Origin: Escherichia phage Andreotti
Reading direction: 5' to 3' (one strand)
DNA: 64,000 nucleotides
Sequence record: MN850610.1
Shown piece by piece: positions 1 through 62,971 of the stretch (positions within the stretch are counted from its first letter, which is position 1; each line of letters begins with the position of its first letter). Below the pieces are notes generated by a model, which saw nothing but the letters and a program-made list of their open reading frames with translations, did no database searches and was not told the DNA's origin. Position numbers and translations under genes: made by a program.

Positions 1-1851
1 CTCATTAGGCATGTAAGCTTCTAATACAGAGTTTCGGATTCCACCATTTTCTTTGATACGTTGTGCTAAGTCATCCCAATCATATCGTAGTTTTGCATCA
101 TGCTTCTCATCAATCTTCTTGTTGGCTGTCTTTGGAGGAACCCAGCCTTCAGGATACTTAGTGAACTTCATGTACTCTGGAACTCCACGCTCTTTAGCAA
201 GTCTCAGAGAGGCTTCATGTAGATAGTAAGAGTGCATCTCTGCAAGTTCATGAAGCTTCGTTTTACCTGCTCGTGAAGAGTAGTTCACGTAGTTCTTCGC
301 AAGGTAATGAGCCACATTTGTAAGGCCAATCCCAACAGAACGACGCTTCTGAACATGGTTACGCATCGACGGATACGGATAATCCATAAGGTCAATAACG
401 GAGTCAACCATTGCAAGAGCATAATAAGCAACGTCAGCGTATTCATCTTCTGAAATTCTCCCTGCAACCAAACTAGCTAGGAAGCAAAGAGCCACCTCAC
501 CATCCTCTTTCACAGCATCGTCTCTGTAAAGGTCTGTCTCTTTCTCAAAACCATACACTGGCAATACAATTTCCATACAAAGATTTGACATCTTCAATGG
601 TTCTTTAAATGGTGTATGTGTGTTTGCATTGTTGGTGAAGAATGGATACACACGACCTGTAGCATAACGCTGTTGAATAAACAGCTTAGCAATTTCACGA
701 GCCTTGACTCGTCTGTGCTTAACACCTGAATGTACTGCATGACCAACTGCCATAGCAAACTCATCAGCAGATGCTGTGTAGAACATGTCATAGAGTTTTG
801 GTGCATCTTTGTAAGAGAATAGCAACCAATCTGTATCATACTGAACACACTGCCAAAAATAATCGTTTGTGCCGAATGAATAGTCCATCTCATTAATACG
901 TTTAGAAGGAACCGTTGTAGGGTGCTTCAAACGCAGTAAATCTTCAATCTGCGGGTCTAGAGCAGTGTAGAAGTTATTAGCTGAACCGCCACGACTCTTC
1001 TGTTTGTTTGCCTCTACAGATGAACGTACAAGCTTGTAATAAGGTAGTTTACCCATGTGCTCAATCGTATTTTGACGGATACCATCACCAATAGTACGTG
1101 TCTCCATCAGCATACCAATACCAGCTTGCTTTGTGGTCATATCATAAGCAACCTTTGCAGCAATACCAAGAGACTCAGCAGTATCATTTGCCTTAATCAA
1201 ACAGCATGACGCATAACCTGATTTAGTTGCTCTTAACCCGTTTAAATAGGGCGTAGGAGCGTTAATCTTCAGGTCAGATAGGTAAGTGTACAGCTTGATA
1301 ACATCTTGCAGTCTACGGTGCTTTGGTTGCTTCTCAAAGGCTTTCATAGCCATACCCATGAACATAAATTGTGGTGACTCAAAAAGTCTTCCCGTTTTAA
1401 TATCACGGATACCATACTTGTCTCTGAACTGTTTCAAGACTGCATAACCGTAAGAGATATCTTTTGAGTGTACGATGTAACCTTGCAGGTATTCAAGCTC
1501 TTCCTGTGAATAGTCCATCTTCTCCCAAAGTCCCGCCCTCTCCATGTTTTTAACGAAGGTAACCAGCGTAGGAACCTTAGTAAAACCTCCAAAGGCTTCT
1601 TTGTAGATAATTCCTAGAAGTAGCCGTCCAGCCATATCTGAGTACTCTTGAGTTTGTTTATCAACACAAACATCAATCATGGCTTGGTGCATCTCTTTTG
1701 TAGTGCAACCTTCATAGACACGTTTCATGGCTTCCATAGTGACTTCTGACCAGATAATACCACGCTTATCTGCCCATGATGCCCACTTATTCAGTCTTTC
1801 TGGGTCAAAGTTTACTACTGTACCGTTTGATTTTTTAATTGTCTTAATCAT
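1..1851 (-). CDS. nrdA: ribonucleotide reductase class I large subunit (NrdA-like), partial; C-terminal part lies beyond window start
   Basis: ATG at 1851 (revcomp), open in frame to window edge; manual translation MIKTIKKSNG... contains SNLCMEIVLP, resembling the class I RNR active-site loop; hairpin just upstream. Confidence 0.8.
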   Translation of the reverse strand, partial: MIKTIKKSNGTVVNFDPERLNKWASWADKRGIIWSEVTMEAMKRVYEGCTTKEMHQAMIDVCVDKQTQEYSDMAGRLLLGIIYKEAFGGFTKVPTLVTFVKNMERAGLWEKMDYSQEELEYLQGYIVHSKDISYGYAVLKQFRDKYGIRDIKTGRLFESPQFMFMGMAMKAFEKQPKHRRLQDVIKLYTYLSDLKINAPTPYLNGLRATKSGYASCCLIKANDTAESLGIAAKVAYDMTTKQAGIGMLMETRTIGDGIRQNTIEHMGKLPYYKLVRSSVEANKQKSRGGSANNFYTALDPQIEDLLRLKHPTTVPSKRINEMDYSFGTNDYFWQCVQYDTDWLLFSYKDAPKLYDMFYTASADEFAMAVGHAVHSGVKHRRVKAREIAKLFIQQRYATGRVYPFFTNNANTHTPFKEPLKMSNLCMEIVLPVYGFEKETDLYRDDAVKEDGEVALCFLASLVAGRISEDEYADVAYYALAMVDSVIDLMDYPYPSMRNHVQKRRSVGIGLTNVAHYLAKNYVNYSSRAGKTKLHELAEMHSYYLHEASLRLAKERGVPEYMKFTKYPEGWVPPKTANKKIDEKHDAKLRYDWDDLAQRIKENGGIRNSVLEAYMPNE

Positions 1852-1874
1852 TTTTTGAATCCTACAGATGAAAA

Positions 1875-1892
1875 GAGCCTCCGAAGAGGCTC
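1875..1892 (-). terminator. hairpin GAGCCTC-CGAA-GAGGCTC between 111-aa ORF and nrdA; possible minus-strand terminator or attenuator
   Basis: perfect 7-bp stem, A-run on plus side before the stem (U-run after it on minus transcript). Confidence 0.35.
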
Positions 1893-1898
1893 CCTAGT

Positions 1899-2234
1899 TT
1901 AAATCTTGAAAATTTGCTCATTCTGCCACATATCGTAAAACTTATCACTTACCTTTGTGACTGAAGAAGTGTGCATACAGTTCAGGAACCACGATGGTGT
2001 ATTACCATTCATAATTGCTTCAAGCTCTTGTGCAGTGCTCTCATCCATGTCTGCAACAACGTAATTACCTCGTATCTTGCAAACAATTCTTCCAAACAAG
2101 ATTGCACTTCTGCCTCTTCGGTCATCACAGTACATAACTGTGTCCCCGTGCTTAACATCTTGTCCGATACTATCAACACCTAATTTAGCACCTGAGATAA
2201 TGTCATCATAAGATAGCTTTTTTGCTTTAGACAC
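1899..2234 (-). CDS. hypothetical protein (111 aa)
   Basis: ORF track; co-directional with neighbours, minimal gaps. Confidence 0.5.
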   Translation of the reverse strand: MSKAKKLSYDDIISGAKLGVDSIGQDVKHGDTVMYCDDRRGRSAILFGRIVCKIRGNYVVADMDESTAQELEAIMNGNTPSWFLNCMHTSSVTKVSDKFYDMWQNEQIFKI

Positions 2235-2559
2235 GGTATTTCTCCAAGTTTCTTTTTAGATACAACCAACCATAGTCAGTCCTTTCTACACCCATAAAGA
2301 GCGGAGCCATCACAACTTTACCGAAAGTATTCCTGTGTTGGCAGATTTCAAAGGAATACTCTTTCTCGATATCAATCCCATATTTGTACAGGACTGCTTT
2401 TAAAACTTGTTCATTATCCAGAAGTGTATCTGGAGTCTCACCATACTTCTCAAGTAACGGGTCATACATAAACACCGTCATAGAAATATTGTAGTTTGAG
2501 AAGTGGCTCTTCTGAGCCACACCTTCTTTATTAATGTTCTGTGAATCCATTATAACCAA
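2227..2559 (-). CDS. hypothetical protein (110 aa)
   Basis: ORF track; short overlaps with flanking ORFs typical of phage operons. Confidence 0.5.
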   Translation of the reverse strand: MVIMDSQNINKEGVAQKSHFSNYNISMTVFMYDPLLEKYGETPDTLLDNEQVLKAVLYKYGIDIEKEYSFEICQHRNTFGKVVMAPLFMGVERTDYGWLYLKRNLEKYRV

Positions 2560-3286
2560 CCCCTTTTAACCAGCACTTCAGGTTATTAGCATCATAATTC
2601 AGTTTCGGGTATGAGGTTACATGGAACTGCTCACCATCATAGTAGACAATATCTGCAATCCATAGTCCGTTCTCTTTACAGAAGTCTTTATCTGCTTTAG
2701 AGGTAATTGGATTAACTTCTACAAAACCATCTACACCCAAATCCTTTAAGCTACCTACAATACCTTTGCAGATAACGCATGTCTCAGATACTACCACAAA
2801 AAGTTCTTGGCTTTCAAGCTCTACAATGTATTCACCAAGCTGTACTTTAGGGAGATTTGATTGCTTCATAATCTTCCCATCGTCTGCACGGACAATCGCA
2901 TACCACTCTTTACCATCAACCACTGACATTCGAATAATACACTCTTGACCAGTACGCTTCTCAATATCTGCAAGACGTTTTAAAGCTTCTTCATAGTCAT
3001 CTGTGTACTTCAGGTCATTATTATGGCAAACAGCTTTCATAGCACCGTTATGGTCATGTTGTGACAGGTAAATCAAACCGTCAAGAACATATTGCAAATC
3101 TGCCTGAGCATCCAGTGTCTCAATGGGGTCTTTCTCTTCAATTGCTTTTACAAGCTCTTTTGCTTCTTCAAGCATACACAGAGATTGAGATTTTAAAGAT
3201 TCCCAATACTCATTACTGTAAGGTTGCTTTTGAGTGTTTCCACAACGAAGGTTCCAGTTTTTTACTGATTCTCTTGAGTTAAACAT
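2531..3286 (-). CDS. hypothetical protein (251 aa); N-terminal helical region weakly reminiscent of MazG-type NTP pyrophosphohydrolases
   Basis: ORF track; segment EEAKELVKAIEEKDPIETLDAQADLQYVLDGL resembles the EExxEL...DxL pattern; unverified. Confidence 0.5.
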   Translation of the reverse strand: MFNSRESVKNWNLRCGNTQKQPYSNEYWESLKSQSLCMLEEAKELVKAIEEKDPIETLDAQADLQYVLDGLIYLSQHDHNGAMKAVCHNNDLKYTDDYEEALKRLADIEKRTGQECIIRMSVVDGKEWYAIVRADDGKIMKQSNLPKVQLGEYIVELESQELFVVVSETCVICKGIVGSLKDLGVDGFVEVNPITSKADKDFCKENGLWIADIVYYDGEQFHVTSYPKLNYDANNLKCWLKGVGYNGFTEH

Positions 3287-11164: not shown

Positions 11165-11340
11165 GTAAGCCTCTTTTAAGTAACTATTAAGTTTTAATCT
11201 TTTATCTTAACGTATTCTATACGTTATACTTTAAAGCTTTTTAAAAGCTATTAAATAATCTTTTAAGAGTTTTAAAGTATCTGTATAGTTAAACTGTTAA
11301 GTAACCTTTTAAGTAAAAACCCACTTCGCAAAGATTAACA

Positions 11341-11362: not shown

Positions 11363-11421
11363 TTGCTTTTTATAATTTTTTGCAGTAATGTATGAGGTTA
11401 ATGATTTTAGAGGGAGTAAAA

Positions 11422-14121
11422 ATGGAAAACGTAGATTTTAAAAACTTACATTTAGTTGGTGATACAGAAACTGATGGTTTACTCCTTGAGTTCACTAAAG
11501 TGCACGTAATGGCTTTCGCAGACTATAAATCTGACGATGAAGAGCCGCCTGTATGGGTCTTTACAGATGAGCCTATCCTCGGTCACAAGTATACCAAGTA
11601 TATTAAGGGTGGCTTACGTGAAGGTATTGAGTTTGCGTTAAAGGCAAAACGTCTTTGCATCCATAACGGTCTCGGTTATGACTGGTGGGTTTTCAATCAC
11701 ATTGCACCTGATTTATGGAACTTTGATAATCCAAAGTGTAAACCGTGGAGTAATTTCTTTCAGGATTCTCTTATCCAGTCTCGTGTTCAGTGGATGGATA
11801 GACCAACTCCAAAGGGTTATAAAGGTGCTCATGGTTTGGCTGCATGGGGTGCTCGTGTCGGTGTTCGTAAACCAGAGATTGAACATTGGGGTGTGTGGAA
11901 TGCAGAAATCTTCACTCGTGTTGTAGAAGATATCCGTATTAACGCCAAAACTAAACGGGCACTTGATAACGAGTATCTCAAGCTTAAGAAGTGTGGTATA
12001 GACACTTATGAAACTTACATGCGAGCTAAAGAAACATCTTTCTGGATGAGTCAACAGGCTATCAATGGTTGGAAAGCTGATAAAGAGCTTATGGAGTTCC
12101 ATGTAAAGGAACTTGACAAGTTGACTAATGAACTTGCTTCAGAAGTTGAACCGCATCTACCTCCAACTATTAAGACCAAAGGTAAAGTCACTGGAGAAGA
12201 GTTTGCAAAAGCTTGGAATGAGTATGTTGAAGCATTTGGTCATGCAGATGGACTGAAAAGAATTACCAAGTACCCTAAGACGAAGTATCGTCAGCAGGTG
12301 CGTAATGGTGAGATGCAGACTTATGAAATCAAACCATTTGGTAAGCCAACTACAAAGATTTTTAACATTGAAAAAAGGAATTGCTATACACCAACCAACT
12401 CTGTAACTGGTGAAGAGTACAAGGAAGGTTTTGTAGCAATGAAGGATGCTCGTGCAATTTGCAATGAGTTGAATGCAAAGATTGGTAAGAAATGCAAAGA
12501 CTGGAAGCCAGTAAAAACAGTCAAAACTGTGAAGTACTATAACAGCCACGTTGTTAACCACTTTGAACTTGAGTCAAGTCGCTACACAGGTTTGATTGAT
12601 GCACCATATACACCAATTGAGTTTGAAGTTTCTCGTATGACTCAGGTAGCAGTTGTTAAAGACTACTTGAAATCGGTTGGTTGGATTCCAGATGACTGGA
12701 ACTACAAGAAAGACTCAGACGGTCGCCCTGTCAAAGTTTGTCGTTTCAAAGACAATAAAAAGATGATTACAAAACATCCTAAGTGGCAGGAAATGGTTGA
12801 GCGGTGTGGTTTGAGCTATGTTGAGCACGAAGGTGTACAGTACATTGAGCATAATTGGTCTGTGAAGAAATACACAGATTTGCTTGAACCTTGCTTAATC
12901 CGTACTTCACCAAAACTTACTGAATCATCTTATGATACGATTGAAGGTGAGCTTGGGCAGAAGATTGCTAAATACTACACTTTGATGCACCGACGCAGAA
13001 CTATTGAGAACTCAAAGGATGACGAGAAAGGTTGGCTGAACCAGATTCGTCCAGATGGTCGCCTTAGTGCTGGTGCAATGGTATTTGGTACTTCAACTGG
13101 ACGTATGACCCAGTATGGTATTGTAAACGTACCGTCTGGTGCTGCTGTCTATGGAGAACCAATGAGGGCAGTGTGGATTTGTGAAGAGGGAACCAACGTA
13201 GTCTCTGTTGATATGAACTCAGCCCAGCTAGTTCTACTTTGTAACTTTATGGGTGATAAAGAGTTCACCAAAGCGGTAACGCAAGGTAAAGAAGAGATTG
13301 AGTTTATTCGTCAAGAAGATGGACGCTATTACTGCAAACATTTTGATGAGTACCTAAACCCAGAGATTGATAAGTACCTTCGCTATGACTCTGAGAATGA
13401 CCTGTACGTTGTCTATTCAGGGACTGATGCACATACACTGAACAGTATTTACTTTAGCTTGAATGATGAGCAGGATATCTTGACTTGTCGAGCTACTCAG
13501 GATGAGAATCTTCTTCATGAGATTAGCAAAGGTCGTAAGAAAGCTAAGAATGGTATCTATGCACTACTGTTTGGTGCAGGTGATGAAAAGTTTGCTAAAA
13601 CTATTAAGGCAGCCACTACTCAGGAAGGTGCATTAACTAAACAGACTTACTTTGTGCGTTTGCCAAAGATTAAGAAACTATTAGATGACTTGGAAGATGA
13701 CTACAAAGCAACTAAAAAGGCACTTGAAGAGGTGTTTGGTAAGACTGCTGCAATCTCTAAAGGGGGCTTTGTAAAGGTTGCTGGAGCTTGGTTGTGGTGT
13801 AAATCTCCACATAAGTTATTGAATTATTTGCTCATGGGTTCGGAGGCTCAGATTCAGAATGAGGCAATTAACCTTGCTTGTAGAAGAGCATGTGAAGAAG
13901 GGTTGACAAAATTAAATGGACGAAAACCAGCAATTGGTGCTAGGCTTTTGCTGGCATACCACGATGAAAACAGTTGGGAGTGCCCAGAAAGTATGACTCA
14001 AGAAGTTAAAGCCATAACTGACTGGATGTATGGTCAGGCATCTAAGAATTTAGGTTTGAAGAGTGAGACGCTTGTAACTGGCACAGGAAAGGTTGGTAAG
14101 AGCTGGTATGAGGTACATTGA
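11422..14121 (+). CDS. DNA polymerase, family A (T7-like), with 3'-5' exonuclease domain
   Basis: Exo I motif DTETDGL; pol motif A-like VDMNSAQL, motif B KKAKNGIYALLFGAG, motif C HDE; start placed at ATG 11422 with GAGGGAG RBS rather than track start 11392. Confidence 0.9.
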   Translation: MENVDFKNLHLVGDTETDGLLLEFTKVHVMAFADYKSDDEEPPVWVFTDEPILGHKYTKYIKGGLREGIEFALKAKRLCIHNGLGYDWWVFNHIAPDLWNFDNPKCKPWSNFFQDSLIQSRVQWMDRPTPKGYKGAHGLAAWGARVGVRKPEIEHWGVWNAEIFTRVVEDIRINAKTKRALDNEYLKLKKCGIDTYETYMRAKETSFWMSQQAINGWKADKELMEFHVKELDKLTNELASEVEPHLPPTIKTKGKVTGEEFAKAWNEYVEAFGHADGLKRITKYPKTKYRQQVRNGEMQTYEIKPFGKPTTKIFNIEKRNCYTPTNSVTGEEYKEGFVAMKDARAICNELNAKIGKKCKDWKPVKTVKTVKYYNSHVVNHFELESSRYTGLIDAPYTPIEFEVSRMTQVAVVKDYLKSVGWIPDDWNYKKDSDGRPVKVCRFKDNKKMITKHPKWQEMVERCGLSYVEHEGVQYIEHNWSVKKYTDLLEPCLIRTSPKLTESSYDTIEGELGQKIAKYYTLMHRRRTIENSKDDEKGWLNQIRPDGRLSAGAMVFGTSTGRMTQYGIVNVPSGAAVYGEPMRAVWICEEGTNVVSVDMNSAQLVLLCNFMGDKEFTKAVTQGKEEIEFIRQEDGRYYCKHFDEYLNPEIDKYLRYDSENDLYVVYSGTDAHTLNSIYFSLNDEQDILTCRATQDENLLHEISKGRKKAKNGIYALLFGAGDEKFAKTIKAATTQEGALTKQTYFVRLPKIKKLLDDLEDDYKATKKALEEVFGKTAAISKGGFVKVAGAWLWCKSPHKLLNYLLMGSEAQIQNEAINLACRRACEEGLTKLNGRKPAIGARLLLAYHDENSWECPESMTQEVKAITDWMYGQASKNLGLKSETLVTGTGKVGKSWYEVH

Positions 14122-14633
14122 TGAGAGATTGTGGATTCACACATGAACAGTTAAAGTCTTGGTTAGATTATGACCCCGAAACAGGGGTCTTAACATGGAT
14201 TGGCAGACCCCCACATAGTAGTAGGGTGGTTATTGGAAGCCAAGCCGGAGCAATTAAGCGCACAAGGTCTGGTGTGTATATGCACACACAGATTTTAGGA
14301 TACAGGACAGGTAATCACCGAATTGCTTGGTTCTGGATGACAGGTAAGTGGCCTGATAAACACATTGACCACAAAGATGGAGATGGTTTGAATAACGCTT
14401 GGGACAATCTAAGAGAGGCCACAAAAGAACAGAATATGTCTAATAGGAGACAACCTAGAACATCAAAAAACTTAAAAGGTACAAGTAGAAGCAAGTCTGG
14501 TAAGTGGATAGCCCAGATTAACCATAATGGCAAGACTATACATATAGGAACATACACAACAGAAGAAGAAGCCCATAAAGCTTACTGTGAAGCTGCTGTG
14601 AAACTCCACGGAGAGTTTGCAAAACTATCTTGA
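14118..14633 (+). CDS. HNH endonuclease with AP2-like domain (putative homing endonuclease)
   Basis: YDPETGVLTW motif; HNH region HRIAWFWMTGKWPDKHIDHKDGDGLNNAWDNLRE; start overlaps polymerase stop (ATGA); paralog of 4029-4565. Confidence 0.75.
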   Translation: MMRDCGFTHEQLKSWLDYDPETGVLTWIGRPPHSSRVVIGSQAGAIKRTRSGVYMHTQILGYRTGNHRIAWFWMTGKWPDKHIDHKDGDGLNNAWDNLREATKEQNMSNRRQPRTSKNLKGTSRSKSGKWIAQINHNGKTIHIGTYTTEEEAHKAYCEAAVKLHGEFAKLS

Positions 14634-17012: not shown

Positions 17013-17171
17013 ATGTTCAGTACAGTCATTCTGTTTATACTGGTTGTCTTTGTATTGTCATACGTTGCAAGTAAGCTTTTGGACACATCTTTTGCAATGG
17101 GTGTCTTGTTTACAATCTTTTGTTTCGTGACACATATAGCTATCAGAACTTTTTTTATAAAAAGTTGTTGA
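17013..17171 (+). CDS. possible small hydrophobic protein (52 aa)
   Basis: manual ORF MFSTVILFILVVFVLSYVASKLL...; weak RBS; overlaps predicted promoter, so doubtful. Confidence 0.2.
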   Translation: MFSTVILFILVVFVLSYVASKLLDTSFAMGVLFTIFCFVTHIAIRTFFIKSC

Positions 17172-17195
17172 CATAGAAAATTTGGTGAGTATACT
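17168..17195 (+). promoter_or_regulatory. sigma70-like promoter TTGACA-N16-TATACT
   Basis: consensus -35 TTGACA at 17168-17173, 16-nt spacer, -10 TATACT at 17190-17195; upstream of repeat region and gene 17577. Confidence 0.5.
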
Positions 17196-17225
17196 GAGCA
17201 GCATAAACCAACGGGTACTCACCAA

Positions 17226-17500
17226 CATCACTTAAGAGTCTTTGAAAAGGGTTTTTTAAGTGATGTGGGGCGAGGCTCGGTGAGGTGGGGTAAGGCATAG
17301 TGCGGTGCTGTTTGGTATGGGTAGTTAGTCTCAGCTACATTAAAATGAGACTTACCTTTTTAAAAGGTCTTTAAACAGGGTCTTTTAATAAGGTTGTGTG
17401 ATGTGATGTATGGTGCTGTGGAGTTTGGTTAGGTCCGGTCAGGTATGGTATGGTGATGTGAGGTATGGGTGGATGGTAGTAGCCACGTTAAAAATCTACC
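17226..17500 (+). repeat. GT-rich composite repeat region 1: hairpin c (17226-17265), GT-rich block, hairpin e (17327-17352), conserved 37-mer f (17357-17393), GT-rich block, hairpin h (17475-17500)
   Basis: elements recur in same order at 18637-19029; blocks built from GGTNN pentamers. Confidence 0.75.
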
Positions 17501-17558
17501 AAGTTTCTAAAGAGTCTTCTGTTGAGGGTTCTTTACAAACAACTTAACAATCAACTAA

Positions 17559-18164
<606 letters not shown>

Positions 18165-18166
18165 TT

Positions 18167-18607
18167 ATGAATACAAAAGCATTAGCAGCAAAGTTTAGTT
18201 ACGGTGACACTGTATCACACTCTGAGATGGATACCTTCTTAGGTATTGTGAAGCCAACTTATCAAGGTGACATTGTTAAGTACGAAGATGAAATGAAGGC
18301 TTATGCGCTTACACGTCTAAACCGACTTGAGAAGTTTATTGAGAAGCTTCTTAAAGAAGAGAAGATTTATCTGGTTGCTTCAATGGGTGTTGGTTATCGT
18401 GTGGTTGAGCCTAAGCATCAAGCAACTATTGCAAAACGCAAAATGTCTGGTAAGATTGGTCGTGCTTTAAAGCAAGCCACTCAAGCGATTGAGAATGTGA
18501 ACACTATGGCACTTAGCCATCAAGAACGTTCACGACTAATTGAACAGCAAAACCACTTAGCTGCTATGAAAGCTAACATTAACAAGCAACGTAGAAAACC
18601 TTTCTAA
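18167..18607 (+). CDS. hypothetical protein (146 aa)
   Basis: ORF track; followed by terminator. Confidence 0.6.
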   Translation: MNTKALAAKFSYGDTVSHSEMDTFLGIVKPTYQGDIVKYEDEMKAYALTRLNRLEKFIEKLLKEEKIYLVASMGVGYRVVEPKHQATIAKRKMSGKIGRALKQATQAIENVNTMALSHQERSRLIEQQNHLAAMKANINKQRRKPF

Positions 18608-18616
18608 GTTGACTAG

Positions 18617-18641
18617 GTAGCCTCTTCGGAGGCTCCTTTTT
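18617..18641 (+). terminator. rho-independent terminator
   Basis: AGCCTC-TTCG-GAGGCT hairpin followed by CCTTTTT. Confidence 0.6.
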
Positions 18642-19029
18642 AAAAGGTCTTTAAACAGGGTCTTTTAATAAGGTATTGTTCGGTGTTGTATGGTAGGGTC
18701 TGGTCCGGCAGGGTCTGGTTCGGTCCGGTAGGGTCTGGTATGGGTAGTTAATCGGAGCTACATAAAAATTCGATTACATCACTTAAGAGTCTTTTAAGAG
18801 GGTTTTTAAGTGAGGTGTGGCACGGTAATGCTAGGTAGGGTCAGGTCAGGTCAGGTGAGGTAAGGTGTGGGTAGTTAGTCTCAGCTACATTAAAATGAGA
18901 CTTACCTTTTTAAAAGGTCTTTAAGAGGGTCTTTTAATAAGGTATTGTATGGTGTAGTTTGGTTAGGTATGGTTGGGTGTGGTAAGGTAGGGTATGGAAG
19001 GATGGCAGTAGCCTTATAAAAAATCTGCC
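18637..19029 (+). repeat. GT-rich composite repeat region 2: f (18637-18673), GT block, hairpin e' (18751-18774), hairpin c' (18777-18815), GT block, hairpin e (18877-18902), f (18906-18943), GT block, hairpin h' (19004-19029)
   Basis: direct repeats of region 1 elements; e/e' and h/h' differ by stem-preserving substitutions. Confidence 0.75.
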
Positions 19030-19048
19030 AAATAAGCTATAAAATCTG

Positions 19049-19077
19049 TTGACAAGTCAGGTGTTATAGCTTATTTT
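19049..19077 (+). promoter_or_regulatory. candidate sigma70-like promoter TTGACA-N17-TATTTT
   Basis: consensus -35 TTGACA; weak -10; 45 nt upstream of secreted-protein gene. Confidence 0.3.
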
Positions 19078-19121
19078 TATACTCAATGTAATACAAAATT
19101 TAATATAACTTTGAGGTCATT

Positions 19122-19505
19122 ATGAAAAAGGTTTTATTAGCTGCTGCAATGGTTATGGCAATGAATTTACCAGTTAATGCAACAGAACTTCCAAATGTGG
19201 ACTTATCAGGTGTTCCAGAAGACACTTGCCAGATTGTTAAAGGTGTTGCTCTAGCTAATGGTGAGTTACTTAAACCAATCTCTGAAGAGTCTTTAACAGA
19301 GATGACTGATAAGGTAACTGACTATCAGTATCGTGTTCTTGCAGAGTATTTCCTACAATCTGCAAATATTAAAGAGAAGCACCCTGATGATATTGATGTA
19401 CAGGCTATGCTCAATCATCGTATTCAGTTTAAAGAAGACTTGATGCAAAAAGCTATGTATGGTGTTGAGTATTTCTTAGAAAACAGAAGCTGCACAGGTA
19501 TTTGA
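19122..19505 (+). CDS. secreted/periplasmic protein (127 aa) with Sec-type signal peptide
   Basis: N-terminus MKKVLLAAAMVMAMNLPVNA-TE (positive n-region, hydrophobic core, AxA-like cleavage site). Confidence 0.55.
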   Translation: MKKVLLAAAMVMAMNLPVNATELPNVDLSGVPEDTCQIVKGVALANGELLKPISEESLTEMTDKVTDYQYRVLAEYFLQSANIKEKHPDDIDVQAMLNHRIQFKEDLMQKAMYGVEYFLENRSCTGI

Positions 19506-26828: not shown

Positions 26829-34844
<8,016 letters not shown>

Positions 34845-34845
<1 letters not shown>

Positions 34846-59437: not shown

Positions 59438-59937
59438 TTTACGAAGAAAGATACAAGATAGATTTTCAGGATACTTGCCATCATACTTCTTTAAGAGTGA
59501 CGAAACCAAATGGAGAGGTTGGTATCATAGCACATTTTGGTGGTGATTATTGGTATGGTACAGGTTGCTTTGAAGGCTACACTCAAGAATACCTGAAAGC
59601 TTTCTACAGAGACTTTGCAAATGACTACAACAGAGTTGTTGACGAAAAGAATAAGTGTATTAAGCATGAACACCATGCCAGAGGTTGCCTAAGTATTGTT
59701 ATGGTACTGGCGTTCTTCTTAGCAATGTTACTGGCAGTATCAGCAATTAGCTGCATAGCTCAAGATTTGACCATTACACAGATTACTGCAAAGATACACG
59801 ATATCTGGTACTTGTATGCTGTTCCTTTAGCTGGTATTATCATCTCACTAATAAGGTTCAGAGTTCATAAGAAACGACTTAAGGATTCTGAGGTTAAACT
59901 TGAAGAGGTAAGTAAAGAATGCAACCTACAATTATAG
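59404..59937 (+). CDS. hypothetical membrane protein (177 aa) with two C-terminal transmembrane helices
   Basis: hydrophobic segments LSIVMVLAFFLAMLLAVSAISCIA and YLYAVPLAGIIISLI. Confidence 0.5.
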   Translation: MEQTIERGWKMIYEERYKIDFQDTCHHTSLRVTKPNGEVGIIAHFGGDYWYGTGCFEGYTQEYLKAFYRDFANDYNRVVDEKNKCIKHEHHARGCLSIVMVLAFFLAMLLAVSAISCIAQDLTITQITAKIHDIWYLYAVPLAGIIISLIRFRVHKKRLKDSEVKLEEVSKECNLQL

Positions 59938-61317: not shown

Positions 61318-61328
61318 AATATCTTAAG

Positions 61329-61356
61329 AGCCTCCTTAATTGGGGGCTTTTTATTT
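61329..61356 (+). terminator. rho-independent terminator ending plus-strand operon
   Basis: AGCCTCC-TTAATT-GGGGGCT hairpin followed by TTTTTATTTTTAT. Confidence 0.6.
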
Positions 61357-62904
61357 TTATAAAATTTTATCGGTTGTCCCAACCTCTGGGTCACCATCAT
61401 ATGTGAACAAAATATCTATCCTTCTTAACAACCCTCTTAATCTTACTCTCTATATAGTTATATAGTACTATATAGTATCTTAGTAACTATCTAGTGGTCT
61501 TAATAGCCCCTCTGTATAACCCTTCTAACAAGCCCTCTAACAAACCCTCTTAACAACCTATACAATCACCTTAACCATCCCTCTACACCTTCTTAGAAGC
61601 TCCTATACACCTCTTAATCTCTATGTCACATAGATGGCTCTCTATAGGTGTTCACTAGGTATTACTAAGCCTCTATATAGACTGTTTTAACAAACTTAAC
61701 AGGGATATCTTTACAGACCTTATCTCACAAGGTCTAACACGGTACTAACAAGGTATCTTATAAGCCTGTTATTACCTGTATTTTTAAAAGACTGTCTAGG
61801 TAATTATTCAGAATCTTAAAATTTTTATAAAATAGGACTATCAAGTCATTTTTTAGGGTCTTTGAAGGAACTGAAAAATATCTGTCTAGGATGTATATCT
61901 GCTTGGTAACCCTTAACAGCTCCCTTACAAGTACTTTGCAAAATTTTAAAATATCCTTAACAATCTCTTAACAATTCTCTCAAGCTCTTAACATCTCTTC
62001 AGAGGTCTTAACAGATTCTTAACAGAACTAACAAGGCTGTAACAAATTCTTAACAGTCGATACATGGTCTTTATAGTTTCTTAACAGATGACTAACAAGA
62101 GCTAACAAGTTAATTTTAAAGAGTTATTTTGTTAAGATAATTAACAAGTTCCTAACAAGTGTTTAATCTTTTTAACAAGCTATTAACATGGTCACTACTC
62201 TTTTCTTATCATTCCCTTTCCTTTCTTAATTGGTATTGTTACCAATCCCTAGTGATTCCTTAAACATGCCTCTTAAAAGCTCTCTATAGCCCCTTATAAG
62301 TTCTTTTAAGCCTCTTCCTAGTATTTACCCCTCAACTGTATGGATAGCTCTTTATAGGGCTTTTCAGGGGCTTTTAAGGCTATGCCAAAGGTTCTTACAA
62401 GGCTTTTACGTGGTCTTAACAGAGATTTAACAAGGGGCTAACAAGTTGCTAACAAGTGCCTTAAAAGCATAACTATGTAGGGATTGTTAAGAAATTGTTA
62501 AGAAAATGTTAAGGGGGCTAGCATTTACGTAACTTTTAAGCTACTTCAAAGTAACTTTAAAGCCCCTATAACATACTTTTAAGACACTAACAAGCCCTTT
62601 TTAGTTATTCACAAGATAGCTAACGAGATAATAAAGCTTATACCCTTATAAGATTCTTTTAAGGCTCTGGGAAGCTTTATAAAGGGCTTTTAAGGGTGAG
62701 GTAATGCAATCCCTTAAGTTAGGTTGATAAGGCTGTTATAGGGCGTTATAGAGCGTTTAAGGGGTTGCCCTTCCCTCTCGGGTTATGGGCTTATATTTAA
62801 GTTGATTTGATAAAAGGCTATAGAGTAGACTATAGAGTTATTGCTTTTTAAGGTCTGATAAGATTCTGGAAAGGAAAGGGAAAGGGATTGTATAAGGATT
62901 TGAT
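61357..62904. repeat. ORF-free iteron field: dozens of copies of CTAACAAG / CTTAACAG / TTAACAA and TATAGAG-type motifs
   Basis: no ORF of 60 aa or more in any frame across about 1.55 kb; runs with 10-11 bp phasing (TAACA starts at 62009, 62020, 62030, 62041, 62051, 62082, 62093, 62103); lies between convergent terminators. Confidence 0.8.
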
Positions 62905-62908
62905 AGAC

Positions 62909-62933
62909 GTAAAAAAGCCCCATTTAAGGGGCT
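62909..62933 (-). terminator. rho-independent terminator for minus-strand genes 62972-63830
   Basis: AGCCCC-ATTTAA-GGGGCT hairpin preceded on plus strand by GTAAAAA (U-run after hairpin on minus transcript). Confidence 0.55.
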
Positions 62934-62971
62934 GTAAAGGTATCTGGGGCTATTTAGCCCCGTTGCGGCGT

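Follow-up and report, generated by a model that had tools for sequence, protein, structure and literature searches.

The region at positions 17168-19077 of the DNA analysed here, a 64,000-nucleotide stretch of Escherichia phage Andreotti (MN850610.1; hereafter the window), is a type II VIPR (Viral Interference Programmable Repeat) locus of the SUSP1 clade in a Felix O1-like phage, a reading to which we assign a probability of about 0.95. VIPR is already known from two preprints of 2026 (bioRxiv 10.64898/2026.04.26.720920 and 10.64898/2026.04.26.720927), whose accessible portions are the source of all statements on the published system made below, and the locus adds no new principle to it. VIPR represents a new form of RNA-based DNA recognition, with a gapped two-in-five code and a protein of ~20 kDa, and the present analysis indicates that the system is recognisable by reading raw sequence alone.

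In SUSP1, a phage of the same subfamily, the intergenic DNA around the vipr and vap genes gives rise to RNAs of ~100 nt (vrRNAs), each of which consists of 9–16 GGY/NN repeats and an invariable ~40-nt 3' tail with a pseudoknot; these vrRNAs have been sequenced and co-purify with Vipr, a minimal RAMP protein related to Cas5, Cas6, and Cas7 (10.64898/2026.04.26.720920, 10.64898/2026.04.26.720927). The target, double-stranded DNA of the form (xNN)n, is set by the NN dinucleotides; the skipped base is usually the codon wobble position, and binding of the Vipr-vrRNA complex represses transcription without requiring a PAM (both preprints). Cryo-EM revealed one protomer per repeat, with the guanine pair held by H17, D177, R138, and W178 and the pyrimidine placed in a purine-excluding pocket (10.64898/2026.04.26.720927). 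The filament is capped by the 3' pseudoknot, and on the target a gapped R-loop triplex is formed (both preprints). A satellite with structural-gene homology to the phage was the target of 18 of the 20 SUSP1-clade guides that had identifiable targets, and the authors propose that VIPR predates CRISPR (both preprints).

The source phage is a Felix O1-like myovirus of the genus Felixounavirus. Over the 2.4 kb around the locus, its closest relative is Escherichia phage heid (97% identity), and 278 phage records match; the genome papers of Felix O1 and UAB_Phi87 do not mention the repeats. The locus contains two non-coding blocks (17196-17576 and 18608-19121), which are bounded by the DNA ligase gene and the gene at 19122 and flank two genes (17577-18164 and 18167-18607), there being no other gene within the repeat-bounded block. 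Both blocks are composed of units in which an inverted-repeat spacer (type A or B) is followed by a pentamer tract and a conserved element of ~34 nt with a hairpin. Two of these units are located upstream of vipr-vap1 and three downstream.

All features of the locus are on the plus strand. The first guide is preceded by a promoter-like site, P1 (TTGACA-N16-TATACT, 17168-17195), which matches the consensus at 11 of 12 positions, in agreement with its earlier description as near-consensus, and which is kept in all relatives examined, vipr-less ones included. Spacer hairpin A1 (17222-17269; inverted repeat CATCACTTAA...TTAAGTGATG; RNA fold -20.3 kcal/mol, z = -5.2) has a 3' arm that continues in register into the first pentamer array, the tract of vrRNA-1 (17259-17318), whose 12 GGYNN units carry the dinucleotides GA GG GA TC GA GG AA AT GC GC TT AT. 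The 3' tail of vrRNA-1 (17319-17352) is a pseudoknot with hairpin e. Spacer hairpin B1 (17353-17394; fold -12.5 kcal/mol) contains a 37-mer that the first-pass annotation had singled out and that was found at 17358 and 18638; it leads into the 15 units of vrRNA-2 (17392-17466; TG GA GA AT GC GG TT TA CC CA AT AT GA GA AT) and a tail forming a pseudoknot with hairpin h (17467-17500).

The vipr gene (17577-18164) encodes a 195-aa RAMP-type RNA-binding protein and is followed by the accessory gene vap1 (18167-18607; 146 aa) and by a terminator-like GC hairpin with a T tract (18619-18644; fold -13.6 kcal/mol), the T tract of which begins spacer hairpin B2 (18633-18674; inverted repeat, RNA fold). 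The downstream block then contains vrRNA-3 (14 units, 18672-18741; AT TC GT AT AG CT CC AG CT TC CC AG CT AT), with a tail (18742-18775) that forms a pseudoknot with hairpin e', in whose stem a G.U pair is present; spacer hairpin A2 (18773-18815; inverted repeat, RNA fold); vrRNA-4 (12 units, 18809-18868; GA GT AC AA TA AG CA CA CA GA AA GT), the tail of which (18869-18902) is a second copy of type e; spacer hairpin B3 (18903-18943), identified as a repeat; and vrRNA-5 (11 units, 18941-18995; AT AT GT TT TA AT TG GT AA AG AT), with a tail (18996-19029) that forms a pseudoknot with hairpin h'. Beyond it lies an inverted repeat, I1, with a T run after it (19030-19077; fold -17.8 kcal/mol, z = -5.2). 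I1 overlaps the promoter-like site P2 of the next gene (19049-19077) and probably marks where the array transcript ends.

Two further observations concern the vicinity of P1. A perfect 8-bp inverted repeat, GGTGAGTA / TACTCACC (17184-17191 / 17216-17223), spans the -10 element and the transcript start and is kept at P1 in the eight relatives inspected, save for one right-arm base in SapYZU01; the repeat may act as an operator or as a 5' stem. A small hydrophobic ORF of 52 aa (phrog_22006; 17013-17171) lies between the ligase gene and P1; it is present in Moogle and Meda and absent in Si3, JH2, and D4.

The earlier description of GGTNN blocks with recurring modules was borne out, in that five in-register arrays are present, on both sides of the operon. 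Each is made up of 11–15 units of [G/T/A]G[T/C]NN that stay in phase throughout, and the identity at lag 5 is 0.53–0.64 in the five arrays versus ~0.33 in shuffles (z = 3.4–5.4). Although a scan of the window for GGT density flagged further stretches, the tail is present only at the five arrays; a flagged stretch that we inspected (59504-59576) is plain GGT-rich sequence with no tail. To describe the unit across the clade, we used 36 related loci from Felixounavirus, Mooglevirus, and Suspvirus, which yielded 85 distinct arrays and 1076 units. In this set, position 1 of the pentamer is G in 76% of the units and position 2 is G in 99%, position 3 is always a pyrimidine (T in 90%), and the entropies of positions 4 and 5 are 1.92 and 1.87 bits, respectively; the arrays are 9–18 units long. 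The spacers and 34-nt elements are almost invariant across the 36 loci, and the last two bases of the pentamer are hypervariable. The pentamers had initially been regarded as filler between the hairpins. This view has to be reversed, because the hypervariable NN is the guide, the functional core of the element, and matches a satellite. Perfect GGY units make up only 42–67% of the promoter-proximal arrays, which, together with the occurrence of G at position 1 in just 76% of the units, suggests that part of the 5' units may not be bound by Vipr. Perfect-GGY content did not cleanly separate the orphan arrays described below from the arrays in vipr-positive loci.

The protein encoded next to the arrays provides the most direct link to VIPR. 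In a search of solved structures, the vipr product matched chain 36pp_D of PDB entry 36pp, 'SUSP1 Vipr protein', with an E-value of 2e-128, and it is identical to SUSP1 Vipr at 191 of 195 residues (98%). The preprints assign to the clade those proteins that are >90% identical to SUSP1 Vipr (10.64898/2026.04.26.720920, 10.64898/2026.04.26.720927), and the vipr product lies well within this range. The residues reported to hold GGY in SUSP1 Vipr (H17, R138, D177, W178, R179, E71, M72, and C173; 10.64898/2026.04.26.720927) are all kept. The second gene of the SUSP1 operon is named vap1 (both preprints), and 145 of the 146 residues (99%) of the 18167-18607 product are identical to those of the SUSP1 gene in the equivalent position. 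The repeat rule, tract lengths, tail fold, and minimal vipr-then-vap1 layout also fit membership in type II. The first-pass annotation had offered a small-RNA family or a hairpin-recognising protein among its explanations. The former was well aimed, as the units have the sequence features of guides of the VIPR type, with Vipr encoded alongside. The latter was right in that the family is protein-bound, but it is the GGY of every pentamer, not the hairpin, that is recognised (10.64898/2026.04.26.720927).

The association between protein and repeat was also recovered independently by a blind scan for a DNA pattern. Searching IMG/VR for seven consecutive GGTNN units, we found at least 57 loci with variable-NN tracts, often many in a row. 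An all-against-all comparison of their ORFs revealed one dominant family of ~200 aa, which is present in 33 of the 57 loci among the matches listed, where it usually adjoins the tracts directly and on the same strand; this family includes homologues (21–39% identity) of the product of 17577-18161 of the window. Several unrelated IMG/VR contigs contain far larger GGYNN arrays, such as 18 consecutive tracts in L130 (3233-4394) and single tracts of 30–42 units in L137; L054 likewise has larger arrays, and in L043 and L044 the arrays seem, from crude ORF calls, to run against most of the ORFs around them. The arrays of these five contigs probably represent other VIPR types. Several candidate explanations were dropped upon the Vipr match, namely an R-loop origin, an antisense-strand Rho-loading site, RecA or Chi-like pairing sequences, primase-site arrays, a TRAP-like host ring binder, and cold-shock-protein sites (GTCTTT).

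All five guides of the phage (vr1 to vr5, corresponding to vrRNA-1 to vrRNA-5) point, by their sequence matches, at one family of E. coli satellites of ~11 kb. When metagenomes were scanned with nine core units of vr4, 52 loci were returned, 26 of which have a target sequence in common with an NN match of 22/24. The other guides were scored on those 26 loci (227 kb), with 300 shuffles of unit order per guide; as these loci had been chosen via vr4, the significance of vr4 itself lies in the 26 homologous matches among the 52 loci. The best targets of vr1 (21/24) and vr2 (25/30) are in the serine-integrase gene of the satellite, both on the sense strand, and that of vr3 (24/28) is in its tape-measure gene, antisense; the vr4 target (22/24) lies inside a 108-aa satellite ORF, and the best target of vr5 (20/22) was found in two satellite loci, L205 and L232. 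None of the 300 shuffles per guide reached the observed scores, and the guides match 83–92% of the NN positions, none perfectly, in the satellites sampled. These matches depend on a skip of 1 nt, skip lengths of 0, 2, and 3 giving background only. The skipped base is codon position 3 in the best targets of vr1, vr2, and vr3, and position 2 for vr4 in the called ORF. Within the 64-kb window itself, the best matches with a 1-nt skip cover 16–18 positions (at most 71%, against a threshold of 80%), and thus no self-target was found.

The same tendency is seen across the clade. On the satellite set, 60 of the 85 guides scored higher than every one of their 40 shuffles, where ~2 would be expected, and three guides match at 24/24. 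Because short guides reach 80% by chance (at least one of 40 shuffles did so for 24 of the 85 guides), we relied on the shuffle comparison and not on the 80% threshold. The published convergence of guides on a helper-dependent satellite therefore holds for the five guides of this phage as well as for 60 of the 85 guides of Felixounavirus, Mooglevirus, and Suspvirus. Other databases gave no convincing targets: 10 units of vr4 found no match in IMG/VR, 8 units of vr1 and of vr3 found only seed-level chance matches there, in unrelated contigs, and vr5 matched only unrelated AT-rich taxa among species-representative genomes.

The targeted element is an E. coli chromosomal island of ~11 kb that encodes a large serine recombinase, a Dam methyltransferase, an O/DnaD-like HTH replication initiator, and several small ORFs, in addition to homologues of the tape-measure gene (window 32617-34845) and a Dit-like gene (31820-32617) of the phage. 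It is located between ymdF and wrbA in strain 97-3250 and inside a DUF72 gene in strain W444, where vr2 matches at 25/30 and vr3 at 23/28. The tape-measure (742 aa) and Dit-like (265 aa) genes of the phage, which are on the minus strand, show patches of 81–92% nucleotide identity to L210 (6737-9806), L272, and L273. The guide vr3 hits the satellite copy of the tape-measure gene; in the window itself, its match is at most 18/28.

A vrRNA-like unit also occurs on the chromosome of E. coli O111:H- 11128 (L153, 11985-12080), with 11 pentamers and a tail of type h in which the second stem has covaried to GTCG/CGAC. Such a chromosomal unit is present in 153 of 5426 E. coli genomes, and it adjoins a small recombinase gene like that ending the satellite island. 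This chromosomal unit fits the remark in the preprints that satellites encode guides of their own (10.64898/2026.04.26.720920, 10.64898/2026.04.26.720927). No target for the five guides of the phage was found in L153.

The repeats had originally been interpreted as the 5' leader of the 17577-18607 operon, that is, as a cis-acting structured element (attenuator or riboswitch-like) that controls it. Two units do sit between P1 and the vipr start codon, and in the SUSP1 constructs vrRNA1 and vipr were placed on one fragment behind a single inducible vector promoter (10.64898/2026.04.26.720920, 10.64898/2026.04.26.720927). However, three of the five units lie 3' of the terminator-like hairpin of the operon, and units stay behind P1 in nine loci that have no vipr at all, which argues against a cis-acting leader. 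Moreover, such a leader leaves unexplained why the NN dinucleotides correspond to a foreign element at one particular spacing, and no matching Rfam family exists: the search that had been suggested, run on 16-20 kb with reporting by E-value, returned only snoRNA and leader hits at chance level. We therefore regard control in cis as very unlikely. The array units are trans-acting guides, for which the term 'leader' is right only by position.

The vipr-less loci are informative in their own right. Approximately 230 records contain the repeat and 117 contain a Vipr that is >90% identical, indicating that roughly half of the relatives are without the operon. P1 and one or two units are kept in nine vipr-less loci (L004, L008, L013, L019, L024, L032, L033, L034, and L063). 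In those with two units, the guides still match the satellite, one of them perfectly (L004, 24/24), and these loci look like recent deletions between repeats. The loci with a single unit (Si3, JH2, Meda, and L063) have 25–73% perfect GGY and no satellite match above 73%, and the A stem is broken in three of the four; they look like decay. Orphan guides could be loaded on the Vipr of a co-infecting relative, or compete for it, and may thus be something other than mere deletion scars.

The conserved structure of the units resides mainly in the tails. The compensatory differences that had been reported between hairpins e (17327-17352) and e' (18751-18774), with the G.U pair, and between hairpins h (17475-17500) and h' (19004-19029) are present as described. 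The 34-nt tails form four classes (e, e', h, and h') with stems that differ yet remain complementary. The loops had been described as conserved, and they are, but they are not plain loops: the conserved segment pairs with the four bases that precede the hairpin (GTAG/CTAC, GTGG/CCAC, or AAGG/CCTT), which indicates an H-type pseudoknot with an A-rich third loop, so that the hairpin is one half of the 3' cap. Among the 22 distinct tails of the 36 related loci, pairing holds in 93.8% of cells, and both sides are changed in 9 of the 11 pairs, whereas sliding the partner columns by 1–3 lowers pairing to 28–37% of cells. The pseudoknot helix is 100% paired, and three of its four pairs covary. The 22 tails belong to four paralogous classes and thus represent few independent substitution events; several single-copy variants are also compensated or wobble-compatible. 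The covariation exceeds what was initially noticed, and the stems are selected for pairing as RNA. Covariation of the tail pseudoknot has been published (Fig. S9), and the pseudoknot itself is visible in the cryo-EM structure (10.64898/2026.04.26.720920, 10.64898/2026.04.26.720927).

These stems also bear on the idea that the repeats act as DNA, as an R-loop replication origin, iterons, a recombinase hot spot, or a G-quadruplex tract. The non-template strand is G-rich after a strong promoter (GC skew up to 0.65), the spacers contain TTAAGAG repeats with a period of 11 nt, and the element adjoins the polymerase and ligase genes, all of which might be expected of such an element. Nevertheless, the stem changes involving G.U pairs work solely in plus-strand RNA, and in unrelated phages (IMG/VR, among the matches listed) the arrays are accompanied by an RNA-binding RAMP protein. 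The G runs that a quadruplex needs are interrupted by TGT and AGT units, for which reason the G-quadruplex was dropped. In SUSP1, the corresponding RNA was sequenced and co-purified with Vipr (10.64898/2026.04.26.720920, 10.64898/2026.04.26.720927). A function at the DNA level is thus extremely improbable.

A sponge or decoy RNA that titrates a host RNA-binding protein, in the manner of CsrB or a TRAP ligand, is likewise an extremely improbable explanation of these arrays, even though a triplet every 5 nt over 9–18 units is the geometry expected of an oligomeric RNA binder and the TRAP protein binds triplets spaced 2–3 nt apart. The spacers also contain GTCTTT[G/A/T] motifs, which we take to be a preferred site of cold-shock proteins. 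The binder, however, is known and encoded next door (Vipr), and a sponge has no need for hypervariable NN dinucleotides that match a satellite with a one-base skip.

Returning to the reading of the units as VIPR guides, the spacer hairpins may explain how single guides arise from the arrays. When the relatives were checked for disruption of the stems, changes in the tail stems proved to be largely compensated (22 tails), whereas those in the stem of the A hairpin are uncompensated, and for this reason we do not claim the A stem as a selected RNA helix. In the B hairpin, every stem variant in the relatives is G.U-compatible. The CCTTTTT of B1 immediately follows a type-e tail stem, giving a terminator-like layout as in the terminator after vap1. 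We infer that the A and B hairpins, and the arrangement of a tail followed by a T run, terminate the array transcript or process it into single guides. The combined proposal, in which these elements are the array-cutting signals and the orphan guides load onto, or compete for, the Vipr of a co-infecting relative, is tentative and, taken jointly, rather unlikely. In the accessible, partly term-searched text of the VIPR preprint and its supplement, we found no discussion of the guide-cutting signals of type II arrays and no coverage of orphan guides or inter-guide hairpin spacers. The orphan guides and inter-guide hairpins thus provide concrete leads on array maturation and decay.

By analogy with SUSP1, both flanks of vipr-vap1 would be transcribed into vrRNAs of ~100 nt, five in this phage, each with 11–15 GGYNN units and a 3' pseudoknot cap. 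One Vipr protomer per unit would sequester GGY and present NN, and the resulting filament would read double-stranded DNA as (xNN)n, with one base skipped per unit. Binding would then form a gapped R-loop triplex and block transcription. The phage would in this way silence the satellite, a parasite of its own infection.

Two other regions of the window deserve mention. A stretch of ~1.6 kb at 61320-62950 contains no ORF of 50 aa or more and is full of motifs with a period of 11–12 nt (CTTAACA, CTAACAAG, CCCTCTAAC, and TTTAAGGGC). It lies just left of the experimentally mapped genome end, as judged from the alignment to ORF1 of UAB_Phi87 (185 aa, minus strand), and may therefore be a packaging or terminal region. 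One of its sequences, TAATTGGTATTGTTACCAATCCCTA, recurs beside the vrRNA-like unit of E. coli O111 (L153, about 11245-11270), and a comparison of the terminal non-coding region of the phage (~1.7 kb) with E. coli genomes gave no match. In addition, an ORF at 14118-14633 overlaps the DNA polymerase gene (11392-14121) at its end; the homologous gene of heid carries a homing-endonuclease annotation, and at this position wV8 lacks an annotated gene.

The closest known system is the type II VIPR of SUSP1, with which the present locus shares the GGY/NN tracts, the classes of tail pseudoknot, the spacer sequences, the position of the genes between the ligase gene and the next operon, and the convergence of the guides on an E. 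coli satellite with structural-gene homology to the phage. The two loci differ in that two guides are located upstream of vipr here and one in SUSP1, with totals of five and four, respectively, and none of the five NN codes is in common. Some arrays of the clade have 17–18 units and thus exceed the range of 9–16 stated in the accessible text of the preprint. The host phage, moreover, belongs to another genus, Felixounavirus.

A more distant analogy is the TRAP-trp leader RNA of Bacillus, in which an oligomeric protein binds conserved triplets separated by 2-nt spacers in about 11 units. TRAP forms a closed ring, acts by attenuation in cis, and has uninformative spacers, whereas VIPR forms a filament in which the spacers are the guide.

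The arrays are also distinct from a CRISPR array, a candidate that we rejected because the variable part consists of repeated pentamers and four tail and two spacer classes make up the conserved parts. No recognisable cas gene was found among the ORFs at 14-23 kb, with Pfam and PHROGs searches run for the four proteins nearest the arrays. According to the accessible portions of the preprints, VIPR nevertheless resembles Class 1 CRISPR-Cas, with its Cas7-family RAMPs, in having a RAMP protein with an RRM core, a glycine-rich loop, and a thumb, which polymerises on a guide RNA at a fixed periodicity, and in having a structured handle that caps the variable part. By the same source, VIPR differs from Class 1 CRISPR-Cas in its period of 5 nt, in pairing by two of every five bases with one target base skipped per unit, and in having no repeat-spacer array, cas1/cas2 adaptation genes, or PAM; it is encoded by phages, and its type II silences its target and does not cleave it.
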